Shown here: positions 47,065 to 51,158 of the stretch, one piece after another | Layout of the letters: each line of letters begins with the position of its first letter | How positions within the stretch are numbered: position 1 is the first letter of the stretch | Virus record (IMG/VR): IMGVR_UViG_2917886563_000007 | Reading direction: 5' to 3' (one strand) | Length of the DNA: 64,000 nt | DNA from: a virus | Taxonomy: Duplodnaviria > Heunggongvirae > Uroviricota > Caudoviricetes | Notes under the pieces: model-generated | The model's database searches: none | The model's input: the letters and a program-made list of their open reading frames with translations, nothing else | Told to the model about the DNA's origin: nothing | Program-made: the position numbers and the translations under genes

Positions 47065-47124
47065 AATATTTATAACCCCAATACGGGCGCCAGAAATGGC
47101 GCCTTTTATATTTGTGGAGTGAGT

Positions 47125-49494
47125 ATGGCAGTACAGATTTCAGGTGTGCTGAAAGATGGTGCGGGAAAACCAATACAGAACTGCACTATTCAACTGAAGG
47201 CAAAGCGTAACAGCACCACGGTACTGGTGAACACGGTGGCCTCTGAAAATCCGGATGAAGCCGGGCGTTACAGCATGGATGTTGAGTATGGCCAGTACAG
47301 CGTTATCCTGCTGGTTGAAGGTTTTCCGCCTTCACATGCCGGAACCATTACCGTCTATGAAGGTTCCAGTCCGGGGACGCTGAATGATTTTCTCGGTGCC
47401 ATGACGGAAGATGATGTCATGCCGGAGGCATTGCGCCGTTTTGAGGCTATGGTGGAAGAAGCAGCACGTAACGCTGAAGCTGCCTCTCAGAGCGCAGCGG
47501 CGGCAAAGAAATCCGAAACTGCAGCGGCATCATCGAAGAACGCGGCGAAAACCTCAGAAACGAATGCAGCTAACAGCGCACAGGCGGCAGCGGCCTCACA
47601 GACTGCATCGGCAAACTCCGCGACAGCAGCCAAAAAATCAGAAACCAACGCGAAAAATAGCGAAACAGCCGCAAAGACGAGCGAAACCAACGCAAAGTCC
47701 AGCCAGACGGCAGCGAAAACCAGCGAAACGAATGCCAAAGCCAGTGAAACTGCGGCGAAAAACAGCCAGGCTGCAGCAGCTGAAAGTGAGAGCGCGGCAG
47801 CCGGTTCTGCGACTTCAGCAGCCGGATCAGCAACTGCTGCGGTTAACAGTCAGAAAGCAGCGAAGACGAGTGAAACTAACGCAAAGTCCAGCCAGACGGC
47901 AGCGAAGACCAGCGAAACAAATGCCAAAGCCAGCGAAACTGCGGCGAAAAACAGTCAGGATGCAGCGGCCCAAAGCGAGAGTGCCGCAGCTGGTTCTGCA
48001 AGTGCGGCGGCTTCTTCTGCCACTGCATCAGCCAACAGTCAAAAAGCTGCAAAAACCAGTGAAACCAACGCAAAGGCGAGCGAGACTGCGGCGGCTAACT
48101 CGGCGAAAGCATCCGCTGCAAGCCAGACAGCGGCTAAAGCAAGTGAAGATGCAGCCAGGGAGTACGCAAGCCAGGCAGCTGAGCCGTATAAACAAGTTTT
48201 GCAGCCGTTGCCTGATGTGTGGATACCGTTTAATGACTCGATGGATATGATCACCGGATTTGGCCCGGGATATAAAAAAATAACAGTGCGCGATGATGTG
48301 GTCACTATACCATCCGACAAAATTGTCCCGTTTTCCCGCGCGAGTTCCGCGACCTATATCAATAAGTCCGGCGCTCTTACCATTGCAGAAATTAATGAGC
48401 CACGTTTTGAAAAAGAAGGGCTGTTAATTGAAGGGCAGAGAACTAACTATCTAAAAAATTCTAATACACCGGAATTGTGGTACTACCACAGTTTACTGGC
48501 GAAAGAGTATGGGGTTGATAATTACGGTTTTAATTATGCAACCGTCACCGTGACAGACAGTCTTGTAGGCACAACCAGTAGTTATCAGATTCATAGTGTA
48601 ACAGGAGAGAACAGGTTTTCTCTGTCCATCGGTGAAACCTGCACTTTTTCTGCCCGCTTTCGTGGAGTTAATTCACGTTGTCGCGTCCATATATCTCTTG
48701 TTATTGGCGAAAATGTTAAAACATCCGTTGATGTATGTCTGGAGCCAGATACAGGTGAGGTTAAGGCGTACGGTAATAAGGCGCTGGTGACATTCAGAAC
48801 GGAAAAACAGGGGGACTGGTGTTACTTTGAAACAACATATACCGCCGCAGAGAATATTGACGAAGTGGTATGCGGTTTTTTTATAACCAATCCTGAAGAT
48901 GGTGGTTTTTCTTCTGATTCGTCATTAACAATGACTACGCCGCAAATTGAAAAAGGGCCATGCGCTTCATCGTTTATTATTTCCGGAAACACACCAACCA
49001 CGCGCGCCAGTGATATGGTTATTTTTTCAACCAGAAATAACATAAGTTCTGTCCCTTTAAGCTGTCTTGTTGAAATACATAAAAATTGGGACTCTACGCC
49101 AAATCAGGCCCCACGAATTTTAACCACTATTGGCGTGGCGACTAATGATGAACAACTGGTATTTGCTTTCAGGAAGCCTACAAGTCCGGATGTAGAGCCT
49201 TTACCTTATGTTCAGTTTGGAGTGAGATCTGCATATCTTAGTCCATCTGTGAAGGCCGGGCGCAAAATGATTGCTGGTTTTGTCTGTAATAGCTCGACTG
49301 AATTTCGTTGCTGTTGTAATGGTTACCTGTCACCTGTTCAGACTTCGTCATGGAAGAATACCGGAGCTGCACATGAAATACGTATTGGGGGAACTTCTGC
49401 TGGCGGAGACCGCCACTTGTTTGGTCACGTTCGTAACCTGAGAATATGGCATAAAGAATTAACTGATGCGCAAATGGGGGAGAGTATTAAATGA
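47125..49494 (+). CDS. stf: Side tail fibre Stf (lambda-like N-terminus, divergent C-terminal region)
   Basis: MAVQISGVLKDGAGKPIQNCTIQLKAKRNSTTVLVNTVASENPDEAGRYSMDVEYGQYSVILLVEGFPPSHAGTITVYE as lambda Stf; Ala/Ser/Thr-rich repeats; ATG at 47125. Confidence 0.9.
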   Translation: MAVQISGVLKDGAGKPIQNCTIQLKAKRNSTTVLVNTVASENPDEAGRYSMDVEYGQYSVILLVEGFPPSHAGTITVYEGSSPGTLNDFLGAMTEDDVMPEALRRFEAMVEEAARNAEAASQSAAAAKKSETAAASSKNAAKTSETNAANSAQAAAASQTASANSATAAKKSETNAKNSETAAKTSETNAKSSQTAAKTSETNAKASETAAKNSQAAAAESESAAAGSATSAAGSATAAVNSQKAAKTSETNAKSSQTAAKTSETNAKASETAAKNSQDAAAQSESAAAGSASAAASSATASANSQKAAKTSETNAKASETAAANSAKASAASQTAAKASEDAAREYASQAAEPYKQVLQPLPDVWIPFNDSMDMITGFGPGYKKITVRDDVVTIPSDKIVPFSRASSATYINKSGALTIAEINEPRFEKEGLLIEGQRTNYLKNSNTPELWYYHSLLAKEYGVDNYGFNYATVTVTDSLVGTTSSYQIHSVTGENRFSLSIGETCTFSARFRGVNSRCRVHISLVIGENVKTSVDVCLEPDTGEVKAYGNKALVTFRTEKQGDWCYFETTYTAAENIDEVVCGFFITNPEDGGFSSDSSLTMTTPQIEKGPCASSFIISGNTPTTRASDMVIFSTRNNISSVPLSCLVEIHKNWDSTPNQAPRILTTIGVATNDEQLVFAFRKPTSPDVEPLPYVQFGVRSAYLSPSVKAGRKMIAGFVCNSSTEFRCCCNGYLSPVQTSSWKNTGAAHEIRIGGTSAGGDRHLFGHVRNLRIWHKELTDAQMGESIK
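47692..48069. repeat. Two tandem copies of a 189-bp (63-codon) unit inside stf
   Basis: gcaaagtccagccagacggcagcgaa(a/g)accagcgaaac... occurs at 47692 and again at 47881, in frame. Confidence 0.8.
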
Positions 49495-49772
49495 AAGATT
49501 TAACACTCAAATTTGCAGACAGGGCCGACTTTTCGGCCTTCATGGATAGCACGGGCTATTATGATGACGAGTCGATGCAGGATGATATTCTTATTGACGT
49601 GATAGGTAACGTGTACAAAGAAACCGGAGAACTTACTGAAGATGGCGAGCCGGTATGTGTTAAGGAAGACGGATATTTTGTAAACATGCGCATCATTAAT
49701 GATGTGAAAACACCGTCAATATTCGATGAATACGTGGTTGCTGTTGAGCATCAACTTCGTGGCTGGATGTGA
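49491..49772 (+). CDS. Hypothetical small protein between the two tail fibre genes (possible fibre assembly factor)
   Basis: 93-aa acidic ORF translationally coupled to stf. Confidence 0.4.
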   Translation: MKDLTLKFADRADFSAFMDSTGYYDDESMQDDILIDVIGNVYKETGELTEDGEPVCVKEDGYFVNMRIINDVKTPSIFDEYVVAVEHQLRGWM

Positions 49773-49781
49773 GGAAGAAAA

Positions 49782-50822
49782 ATGGCTACATCGACAGTAA
49801 TTCCTGATGACATCAAAACGCTAAAATCCGATGTTAGTAAACTAAAAACTGATCAAGGAAGCTATGCAACAAAATCATATGTAGACAATAAAACAACATG
49901 GAATAGTTATTGTAATGTAATCTATGATCAAAAGTCATTGCCCACAACTGGAACTATATTTAGCGGTAAGATGCACTTGTCAAATAAGACAGGAGAAACC
50001 GAAAACGCTTATAGTGAGATGTACACCAGAAAAAATATTGACGGCACTAAAGATACAATGACAAGGATTGTCACACACAATGGAACAAAAGGTATCTTCT
50101 GGGATTTTAGCGATCTTTACGGTGGGACATTGATTTTCCCAGGAAATGAAGGTTACTTGAAAATGGGTAAGTGCCTCATGTCTTATGGGAATCGTGTTGA
50201 TAACGCCATGATTAAATTTGATTACACAGACACATTACAAATCAAATATGCTAATCATGGGTCAACCATGACATTAAATACACAGGGAACCGCTCACGCT
50301 GGCGTAACAACTCGAATATGGGGCAATTCTAGCCGCCCGGTTGTTTATGAAGTTGGCGTAGATGAGGCTCTGTATATGTTCTACGCACAGAAAACTACCA
50401 GCAATACCTACGAATTAACGGTTAACGGCGCGTGTAATGCAAGTGCATTTAATCAAGGCTCTGACCGGGATCTGAAAGACAATATTCAGGTGATCGATAA
50501 TGCAACCGACCGCATTCGTAAAATGAACGGCTATACATACACGCTTAAAGAAAACGGTATGCCTTACGCTGGTGTTATTGCACAAGAAGCCCTGGAAGCC
50601 ATCCCCGAAGCCGTAGGGTCTATGATGAAATATCCAGACGGTGGGAGTGGATTAGATGGAGAAGAAGGTGAACGGTATTACACTGTAGATTATTCTGGTG
50701 TTACTGGCTTGCTTGTTCAGGTAGCCAGAGAGTCAGACGACAGAATAACAGCACTGGAAGAAGAAAACGCAGAATTAAGACAAAGATTATCTGCAATTGA
50801 GGCGACGCTTGTGTCTAAATAA
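49782..50822 (+). CDS. Second tail fibre/receptor-binding protein with C-terminal intramolecular chaperone (peptidase S74-like) domain
   Basis: C-terminal SDRDLKDNIQVIDNATDRIRKMNGYTYTLKENGMPYAGVIAQEALEAIPEAV plus terminal coiled coil fits the auto-cleaving chaperone domain of tail fibres and endosialidases. Confidence 0.75.
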   Translation: MATSTVIPDDIKTLKSDVSKLKTDQGSYATKSYVDNKTTWNSYCNVIYDQKSLPTTGTIFSGKMHLSNKTGETENAYSEMYTRKNIDGTKDTMTRIVTHNGTKGIFWDFSDLYGGTLIFPGNEGYLKMGKCLMSYGNRVDNAMIKFDYTDTLQIKYANHGSTMTLNTQGTAHAGVTTRIWGNSSRPVVYEVGVDEALYMFYAQKTTSNTYELTVNGACNASAFNQGSDRDLKDNIQVIDNATDRIRKMNGYTYTLKENGMPYAGVIAQEALEAIPEAVGSMMKYPDGGSGLDGEEGERYYTVDYSGVTGLLVQVARESDDRITALEEENAELRQRLSAIEATLVSK

Positions 50823-50828
50823 TATTAA

Positions 50829-50850
50829 GGGGCCGAGCGCCCCGTTTTAT
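50829..50850 (+). terminator. Rho-independent terminator after the tail fibre gene
   Basis: ggggc-cgagc-gcccc hairpin followed by gttttatt. Confidence 0.6.
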
Positions 50851-50864
50851 TGGGTAGGATGAAA

Positions 50865-51158
50865 ATGGATATAACACCTTTCCTTCATGCACTTTGTGCT
50901 GTGGCTGCGCAGGTACTGATTGGCCTTTTTACCGGAAACTGGGCTTACGGAGCTATAGCCGGTTGTACGTTCTTCATTGCGCGTGAACACACCCAGGCAG
51001 AATATCGCTGGATTGAAATGTTCGGGCACGGCAAGCGTATGAATATGCCGTGGTGGGGCGGTTTTGATCCACGCGCGTGGGATGTAGCAAGCCTGATGGA
51101 TTTTTCTGTGCCGGTGGTGGCGTGTCTGCTGGTCTGGGTATTTATCCGTTCAACATAA
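50865..51158 (+). CDS. Small predicted inner-membrane protein (cargo)
   Basis: About 97 aa from MKMDITPF (AGGA RBS 5 nt upstream); two hydrophobic segments. Confidence 0.5.
   Translation: MDITPFLHALCAVAAQVLIGLFTGNWAYGAIAGCTFFIAREHTQAEYRWIEMFGHGKRMNMPWWGGFDPRAWDVASLMDFSVPVVACLLVWVFIRST

Follow-up and report, generated by a model that had tools for sequence, protein, structure and literature searches.

The stf gene of a lambda-like E. coli prophage and the two genes that follow it probably form a single module, whose products would build one branched, two-part side tail fibre. The prophage lies in a 64-kb stretch of DNA, referred to as the window hereafter, in which stf, ORF93 and ORF346 succeed one another on the same strand (Table 1); the preliminary description had correctly located a 93-aa and a 346-aa ORF after stf. 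Measured against its PHROG profile, each of the three ORFs is full length.

Table 1 Components of the side-fibre module and their positions in the window
Feature	Position	Strand	Remarks
stf, proximal side tail fibre	47119..49494	+	791 aa counted from GTG 47119
ORF93, small acidic accessory protein	49491..49772	+	ATG overlaps the stf stop (ATGA)
ORF346, distal (branch) fibre precursor	49782..50822	+	C-terminal S74 chaperone, self-cleavage predicted
ORF346 aa 1-30, conserved N-terminal anchor (MATSTVIPDDIKTLKSDVSKLK...)	49782..49871	+	presumably docks onto Stf/ORF93
ORF346 aa 31-105, hypervariable segment, candidate receptor-contact region	49872..50096	+	predicted beta-sandwich
ORF346 aa ~163-226, conserved distal domain before the predicted cleavage site	50268..50459	+	related to a T4 gp34 domain
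ORF346 aa 227-346, S74 intramolecular chaperone domain	50460..50819	+	then C-terminal coiled-coil helix
Terminator-like hairpin GGGGCCGAGCGCCCC then GTTTTATT	50829..50851	+	closes the stf-ORF93-ORF346 unit; consensus match only

ORF346 starts 10 nt past the stop codon of ORF93, with AGGA just upstream. For stf, an alternative start at ATG 47125 (MAVQISG...) agrees with the annotated start in phage Tritos. A hairpin comparable to that closing the module, likewise a consensus match only, is located upstream of stf at 47085-47104; the count of terminator-like hairpins is no higher than the shuffled expectation. On the 3′ side, ORF102 lies next to the module, and host genes come after it. In phage Tritos, a PinR recombinase gene is situated downstream of the module.

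In Stf, an N-terminal attachment domain of the lambda-Stf type is followed by an Ala-rich repeat shaft and by a variable, putatively lectin-like C-terminal region, which terminates in RHLFGHVRNLRIWHKELTD. The N-terminus corresponds to PF08400 phage_tail_N (E 6e-67), aa 3-96 match the 'Tail fiber protein' of PDB 9e7m (E 2.6e-49), and the tblastn match to lambda Stf is confined to aa 1-97, where the identity of 88.7% suggests the same attachment to the tail tip. The NCBIfam GTA_spike_fiber domain was found at aa 436-630 (E 2.6e-18), and Laminin_G_3 (PF13385) matches the C-terminal end at a sub-threshold score (E 9e-5; 23.1 bits, cut-off 27.6), over the last third of the profile only. Among 14 lambdoid homologues, Stf is hypervariable at aa 453-602 and aa 663-752. 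The lambda Stf-Tfa pair occupies the same position after J; compared with lambda, the entire distal part of Stf and tfa are replaced, lom is absent, and there is no Caudo_TAP-type assembly protein, while ORF93 and an S74 fibre come after a putative lectin-like fibre end. Consistently with this, lambda Tfa, Lom and the C-terminal half of Stf (orf-314) gave no tblastn match in the window at E ≤ 0.01, and neither ORF93 nor ORF346 matched the Tfa family in Pfam, NCBIfam or PHROG.

ORF346 is a tail-fibre protein, as had been proposed: besides carrying the S74 domain, it matches phrog_4563 'tail fiber protein' over aa 1-346 of 346 (E 2.8e-201), and a 97%-identical cluster bears the name 'tail fiber domain-containing protein [Escherichia]'. 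Three regions can be distinguished ahead of its chaperone domain. One is the N-terminal anchor, whose conservation is 0.92-0.98 among 36 distinct homologues and for which AF2 predicts a helix at aa 9-29; it recurs in tunus gp83 (71% over 24 aa), in a 234-aa allele of the distal fibre (70% over 27 aa), and in IrisVonRoten Gp24 (59% over 17 aa, E 0.012). Another is the segment of aa 31-105, with a conservation of 0.42-0.61; AF2 places strands at aa 58-110 (block pLDDT 78-85). The last is the distal domain, in which W180, G181 and R185 are invariant: positions 163-219 of the homologue profile match the T4 gp34 chains 5nxf, 4uxe and 9x3r (E 2e-8 to 8e-8). This pre-cleavage domain thus resembles T4 gp34 and not a T5-type tip. 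T5-type tips bind the receptor at the segment adjoining the cleavage site; the position of the binding site in ORF346 is uncertain, because its most variable part is aa 31-105 and not the segment by the cleavage site. The distal part and the chaperone are also found at positions 985-1201 of phrog_6578 (1210 aa), and positions 1-200 of the same profile match Stf aa 35-223, which indicates that a long Stf-type fibre made of one chain also ends in them. The AF2 monomer of ORF346, based on a 42-sequence alignment, was poor (mean pLDDT 63.3, pTM 0.31), and Foldseek found no PDB match for it at E ≤ 0.001; such an uninformative monomer model is expected of an intertwined trimer.

The C-terminal intramolecular chaperone signature reported previously was confirmed: both quoted motifs are present, and PF13884 Peptidase_S74 matches aa 227-278 (E 3.4e-14; 53.3 bits, cut-off 22), and the match spans positions 1-57 of the 58 in the profile. 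The first motif, SDRDLKDNIQ, begins at Ser227 (codon 50460-50462), and the second, GVIAQEALEAIPEAV, corresponds to aa 264-278. The domain occupies the last 120 aa, behind the part that matches the tail-fibre PHROGs and T4 gp34, and includes an AF2 helix at aa 304-345 (pLDDT 84-93). At its start, Ser227-Asp-Arg-Asp-Leu-Lys232 (Lys232 codon 50475-50477) presents a catalytic-type Ser/Lys pair five residues apart; S227, D228 and K232 are each kept in at least 90% of 42 homologues, and this stretch aligns with the SSDRRIK motif of S16 gp37. The corresponding pairs are Ser911/Lys916 in endoNF and Ser1264/Lys1269 in T5 pb1. It is thus predicted from the sequence that Ser227 is the nucleophile and the cleavage position and Lys232 the general base, and that processing of ORF346 leaves 226 aa as the mature fibre and sets the 120-aa chaperone free. 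The signature had also been described as that seen in T5 L-shaped fibres and endosialidases. This is true at the level of the S74 family (PF13884 / MEROPS S74), in which endosialidase K1F, T5 pb1, S16 gp37 and the eukaryotic MYRF share with ORF346 the Ser-x4-Lys at the domain start; direct matches were limited to the S16 gp37 chaperone (6f45, E 1.1e-9) and MYRF (7dc3, E 0.0097), and the PDB search gave no direct sequence match of ORF346 to T5 pb1 or endosialidase chains. Like the other family members, ORF346 has a C-terminal helix and carries the domain at the end of a fibre protein; unlike them, its predicted mature part is very short, at 226 aa.

This three-gene module is common, is already annotated in many coliphages, and is not new. 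Among 5426 complete E. coli genomes, 517 contain the stretch from ORF93 to ORF346. The general pattern is a proximal fibre ending in RHLFGHxRNxRIW, a protein of ~92 aa, and a distal S74 fibre starting with M-x-T-x-T-V-I-P; the same gene order and junction motifs were found in Tritos (lambdoid), ESCO3 (Nonagvirus), VogelGryff (Seuratvirus), tunus (T1-like) and IrisVonRoten (T5-like). Of 80 IMG/VR loci retrieved, 78 reach past ORF93, and all 78 have an anchor-bearing gene 10 nt after it. The anchor was found in 60 phage records, all from phage groups carrying ORF93; it directly adjoins an ORF93 homologue in every locus inspected or compared by coordinates, and it was not seen away from ORF93 and a proximal fibre that ends in RHLFGH..RIW. 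Since the anchor-bearing phages differ in their tail tips, the anchor must presumably have its conserved partner in the Stf end and/or ORF93.

Two known systems are instructive here. In IrisVonRoten (Bas32), the genes for Gp22, Gp23 and Gp24 have the same order and coupled starts as those in the window. AlphaFold-Multimer models place Gp24 on the proximal fibre Gp22, whose C-terminal domain is described as galectin-like and protruding (Humolli et al. 2025, PMC11990801). Gp22 ends in RHLFGHIRNFRIWHKELTD and is 42% identical to Stf aa 132-790, each with a candidate lectin-like C-terminal domain, while the N-terminal attachment is T5-type (with LtfC) in IrisVonRoten and lambda-Stf type in the window. 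Gp23, a 92-aa middle protein, is the counterpart of ORF93, and goes undiscussed in PMC11990801. Gp24 starts with MVTKTVIPTDITKLK and, like the distal fibre here, ends in a PF13884 domain, but is 574 aa long, with published 'T-shaped' dual binding domains, against 346 aa for ORF346; the two are alignable at their ends only, that is, in the anchor and the chaperone. The other system is the L-shaped LtfA/LtfB fibre of the T5-like phages DT57C and DT571/2, in which the second protein joins the virion by way of the first and each has its own receptor-recognition region, the receptors being O-antigens (Golomidova et al. 2016, PMC4728585). It provides a genetic precedent for branched fibres. Autocleaving pfam13884 C-terminal domains occur in both DT57C proteins, whereas here the distal ORF346 alone has one and Stf has a putative lectin-like end; the LtfB anchor is described as phiEco32 gp15-like (PMC4728585).

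The following assembly can be proposed. Stf trimers would attach to the tail tip via the lambda-type N-terminal domain and display the hypervariable lectin-like C-terminal region, and ORF93, coupled to stf translation, may serve the Stf end as an assembly factor or connector. ORF346 would trimerise with the aid of its own C-terminal chaperone, which would then cut itself off at Ser227 to leave the 226-aa distal fibre, and this fibre would attach where Stf and ORF93 meet, through the ~30 conserved residues at its N-terminus. Each side fibre on the virion would then offer two variable regions for binding, and the receptors would most probably be surface glycans such as O-antigen.

The two distinct fibres envisaged in the preliminary description agree with this proposal in part: since both Stf and ORF346 contain hypervariable segments, two binding specificities are plausible, but a single branched fibre with two variable binding regions appears likeliest, ahead of two independent fibres. 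An independent second fibre fixed directly to the tail tip, giving two separate fibre types per virion, is unlikely even though ORF346 is encoded separately, behind a ribosome-binding site of its own, and some phages do have long fibres and short ones side by side as distinct structures (PMC11990801): ORF346 lacks PF08400 and any other tail-attachment domain, PF08400 being found in Stf alone; its anchor is common to lambda-like, T1-like, 9g-like and T5-like phages of unrelated tail tips, always in the company of ORF93 and the RHLFGH-type end; and its IrisVonRoten homologue is modelled on the proximal fibre. It is quite unlikely, too, that a defective prophage has left the module as an inert relic, from which no functional fibre is made. 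Shortened E. coli copies are numerous (90-, 194-, 227- and 299-aa versions in the IMG/VR loci, and 'partial' database entries), and laboratory lambda has a frameshifted stf (PMC11990801), but in the window all three ORFs are full length and the catalytic residues of ORF346 are intact, dN/dS is 0.05-0.36, the rest of the prophage retains long ORFs that fit integrase, terminase, portal, tape measure and J, and near-identical modules are present in isolated, plaque-forming phages. Very improbable is a literal replacement of Tfa by ORF346 as a trans-acting Stf chaperone outside the virion, in spite of its gene sitting in the tfa position and of the names 'endosialidase chaperone' and 'putative lateral tail fiber chaperone' given to homologues in ESCO3, JK16, VogelGryff and PeterMerian: these names just echo the Pfam family title, S74 domains, including those in endosialidase and T5 pb1, work in cis, helping the polypeptide that precedes them, the 226 upstream residues of ORF346 are themselves fibre-like with a T4 gp34-like domain and a hypervariable segment, the same distal part and chaperone are C-terminal in the 1210-aa fibre family that also matches a proximal part of Stf, and this C-terminal end of Stf is also found in variants that lack any ORF346 homologue.

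The claim that tfa had been replaced accordingly holds for position, no Tfa being detectable in the window by tblastn, and fails for function, as the ORF346 chaperone would act on ORF346 itself. ORF93 follows this Stf end even where the distal fibre is missing, and is therefore the better candidate for a Tfa substitute; it is more likely than ORF346 to be the functional stand-in. It is present without the distal fibre in Lambda_2G7a, ev243 and the rV5-like CarlMeissner, always behind a fibre ending in RHLFGH..., and these three contexts led us to reject ORF93 as a part of the S74 fibre. Its earlier designation as a 93-aa unknown ORF is right as to length and function, whereas its distribution is known; the literature search gave nothing specific on a published ORF93 function or on the module in lambdoid phages. 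It matches phrog_1361 over its full length (E 2e-45), is 37% identical to IrisVonRoten Gp23, and belongs to a ubiquitous type of protein, common to lambdoid, T1-like, Dhillonvirus, 9g/Seurat-like, T5-like and rV5-like coliphages. The ORF93 model shows a confident alpha/beta fold, for which no informative structural relative was found, and there is no likeness to known tail-fibre chaperones. When the ORF93 profile was searched against 1.84 billion representatives, 91 proteins were obtained, several of which are PKD- or TPR-repeat proteins of 1300-6100 aa matched by many short stretches; a repeat-domain family was nevertheless rejected, since hhalign of ORF93 with one repeat protein gave a probability of 54% only and the model is not the all-beta PKD fold. 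The identity of ORF93 tracks the neighbouring distal-fibre anchor and not the last 300 aa of Stf, which fits a connector role but could equally reflect simple linkage. We consider it an evenly balanced proposal that ORF93 (phrog_1361) is an unrecognised dedicated assembly factor or connector for RHLFGH..RIW lectin-like fibre ends and a docking platform for interchangeable S74-type distal fibres. The module as a whole offers little that is new, since its fibre gene is both abundant and annotated, and has been modelled before in a related phage.

The range of E. coli surface types open to adsorption by this temperate phage probably depends in part on the side-fibre module. Its conserved junctions (the Stf end, ORF93, the distal anchor and the chaperone) flank variable segments, a layout that suits the swapping of receptor-binding parts when lambda-based particles are engineered. 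The idea of an exchange cassette is borne out as allele replacement by recombination, with a 346-aa and a ~234-aa allele of the distal fibre and a mosaic dS, and not as inversion: this window has no invertase beside the module. A host-range switch by inversion was likewise rejected, as ORF102 and host genes follow here, unlike PinR in Tritos. Variable segments are present in both Stf and ORF346, with dN/dS < 0.4, and ORF346 is under purifying selection (dN/dS 0.22-0.36), as is its anchor (0.05-0.14). Within ORF346, aa 31-105 show dN of about 0.6 and dS ≥ 2, against dS of 0.04-0.35 in the anchor and chaperone segments, and this contrast indicates that aa 31-105 are a recombined allele.

The two ORFs described downstream of stf, the side tail fibre gene, were found at the coordinates given in the preliminary description, and both motifs quoted there from the second product are present (table). 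The first product, ORF93 (93 aa), corresponds end to end to phrog_1361 (unknown function), and the second, ORF346 (346 aa), to phrog_4563 ('tail fiber protein'; E 2.8e-201). The proposed S74-type chaperone was borne out by the Pfam profile: aa 227-278 of ORF346 match PF13884 (Peptidase_S74, 'chaperone of endosialidase') with E 3.4e-14 and 53.3 bits (cut-off, 22 bits), and Ser227, Asp228 and Lys232 are each kept in at least 90% of the sequences in an alignment of 42 homologues. In the PDB, the profile built from this alignment matched solved chains of three kinds: gp37 of Salmonella phage S16, at the end that bears the chaperone (6f45; E 1.1e-9); MYRF, the S74 relative from eukaryotes (7dc3; E 0.0097); and T4 gp34, over the 60 residues directly before the predicted cleavage site (E about 2e-8). 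It did not directly match the T5 pb1 and endosialidase chains there; the tie to these proteins runs through the Pfam family and not through a pairwise match.

Features in and around the fibre unit
Feature	Position	Strand	Remark
Hairpin before stf	47085-47104		GC hairpin with T-run
Stf shaft repeat	47450-48150		aa ~110-345
ORF93	49491-49772	+	ATG overlaps stf stop codon (ATGA)
ORF346	49782-50822	+	start 10 nt past ORF93 stop, AGGA ahead
ORF346 Ser227 codon	50460-50462	+	SDRDLK starts here; Lys232 five residues further
ORF346 second motif, GVIAQEALEAIPEAV	aa 264-278
Hairpin after ORF346	50829-50843		GC hairpin with T-run
phrog_1443 gene	50850-51158	+	~97-102 aa, hydrophobic; start more likely ATG 50862/50868; 3' of the hairpin after ORF346

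The two terminator-like hairpins exactly bracket the stf-ORF93-ORF346 unit, the regional total of such sites being not above the shuffled expectation. The phrog_1443 gene (unknown function), whose product looks like a small membrane-protein moron, is the last phage gene and is followed by a host LysR-family gene; it also lies 3' of the fibre module in Tritos, Lambda_2G7a and ev243, with or without an S74 fibre. The host flank is E. coli, and the surrounding prophage carries long ORFs as expected for an intact lambdoid.

When the whole 64-kb window was searched by tblastn with lambda Tfa (the tail fibre assembly protein encoded after stf in lambda), with Lom and with the C-terminal half of lambda Stf, none of them gave a match. 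The lambda-like part of Stf is only its first 97 residues (88.7% identity), which also match the solved Stf N-terminal chain 9e7m (E 2.6e-49) and PF08400. Thus, the tail-attachment end is lambda's, and all the distal parts come from a different module. These parts include an NCBIfam GTA head-spike-fibre domain (aa 436-630) ahead of a putatively lectin-like C-terminal end with a sub-threshold match to Laminin_G_3 (concanavalin-A-like lectin; E 9e-5). The shaft consists of a long repeat rich in Ala, Ser, Thr and Lys (AAKTSETNAKSSQTAAK...), which yields long spurious ORFs both in other reading frames and on the complementary strand.

This three-gene fibre module is found across phage families. 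ORF93-ORF346 DNA occurs in 517 of the 5426 complete E. coli genomes (identity about 90%, coverage 80% or more), where it is annotated as 'hypothetical protein' and 'tail fiber domain-containing protein', and the 90%-identity protein clusters have hundreds to thousands of members. The same arrangement occurs in isolated phages, namely the lambdoids Tritos, HannyBb, 2G7b and PhiR46_1 and the virulent Nonagvirus ESCO3. By tblastn, ORF93 was found in 187 phage records (lambdoids, T1-like Drexlerviridae, Dhillonvirus, Queuovirinae, T5-like phages and, with partial coverage, rV5-like myoviruses); in each of the loci inspected or listed, it directly follows a gene for a lateral or side tail fibre. 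In the loci read, the fibre 5' of ORF93 always ends in RHLFGHxRNxRIWHKxLTD, and the gene 3' of it, where present, always starts M-x-T-x-T-V-I-P-x-D-I-x-x-L-K and ends in PF13884. Of the 80 IMG/VR prophage loci that have a close ORF93, 78 reach beyond it, and every one of these carries such a distal-fibre gene 10 nt further on, as a 346-aa or a ~234-aa allele, the latter also passing PF13884. In one of the 80 (L055), the protein upstream of ORF93 lacks the RHLFGH..RIW end and ends ...VFAGRTDVRKFIGEY, perhaps because of a frameshift or because the fibre ends differently there. This fibre module is ordinary for coliphages, being widespread and annotated already; the mildly novel thread is ORF93 only, an uncharacterised and very widely shared protein.

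The earlier observation is confirmed and its interpretation is largely right, with two corrections. One is that the 'two distinct fibres' are better read as one branched fibre. The anchor, the conserved N-terminal ~30 residues of ORF346, occurs in 60 phage records, all from ORF93-bearing groups, and directly adjoins an ORF93 homologue wherever both positions were compared. ORF346 has no attachment domain, the tail tips of the anchor-bearing phages are as unlike as those of lambda, T1 and T5, and the anchor has just two constant partners, namely the fibre end of the RHLFGH type and ORF93. The T5-like IrisVonRoten has the same trio (Gp22/Gp23/Gp24), its Gp22 being 42% identical to Stf over aa 132-790. 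In the published AlphaFold-Multimer models (PMC11990801), Gp22, the proximal fibre, bears Gp24 at its end and has a protruding galectin-like C-terminal domain, possibly an additional binding domain. Branched two-protein fibres were shown genetically in DT57C (PMC4728585). Judging from the co-occurrence and the homologue's model, ORF346 far more probably docks on the fibre end or ORF93 than attaches to the tail independently.

The other correction concerns the claim that ORF346 replaces tfa: the absence of a Tfa match stands, and ORF93 is the better candidate for the substitute, as a trans-acting helper or a structural connector. No locus was seen that had the distal fibre but lacked ORF93, whereas ORF93 occurs with no distal fibre in three settings: in Lambda_2G7a and ev243, where the order is stf, ORF93 and the small membrane-protein gene, and in the rV5-like CarlMeissner. 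In all three, the fibre that precedes ORF93 has the RHLFGH end, so ORF93 goes with the proximal fibre's lectin-like end; since the S74 fibre has its own folding aid, ORF93 is left as the candidate helper or connector. The identity of ORF93 tracks that of the adjacent anchor (93-97% with 97%, 37% with 37%, and 49% with 57%) and not that of the last 300 residues of Stf (28-41% throughout), which counts against a simple chaperone. This tracking suits a connector, but may be mere linkage. The ORF93 profile also gave multi-stretch matches in giant PKD- or TPR-repeat proteins (P0361, P0368, P0382 and others); one near-full-length stretch in P0361 reached an hhalign probability of only 54%, and the likeness is probably a shared beta-hairpin motif (DG..Y.V.VRI.DD) and not homology.

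In the lambdoid Stf homologues, conservation covers the first ~450 and last ~40 residues, with hypervariable stretches at aa 453-602 and 663-752; in ORF346, it covers the anchor, the gp34-like domain and the chaperone, with a variable segment at aa 31-105. The dN/dS values are 0.05-0.36 in all segments. The dS values rise from 0.04-0.35 in the anchor and chaperone of ORF346 to at least 2 in aa 31-105, a pattern that marks alleles replaced through recombination between conserved linkers. The suggested 'exchange cassette' thus holds as allele replacement and not as an invertible switch, of which there is no sign in the window. A PinR-type site-specific recombinase gene lies just 3' of the same module in Tritos (L001, 7730-8320) and has no counterpart beside the module in the window. 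Because variable segments occur in both Stf and ORF346, each protein has regions that could plausibly contact a receptor. The analogy to DT57C and the BASEL phages suggests that the candidate receptors are probably O-antigen-type glycans. Finally, the 346-aa fibre gene is truncated (90, 194, 227 or 299 aa) in several IMG/VR E. coli prophages (L009, L010, L012, L047 and L061), which suggests that the distal fibre often decays in resident prophages.
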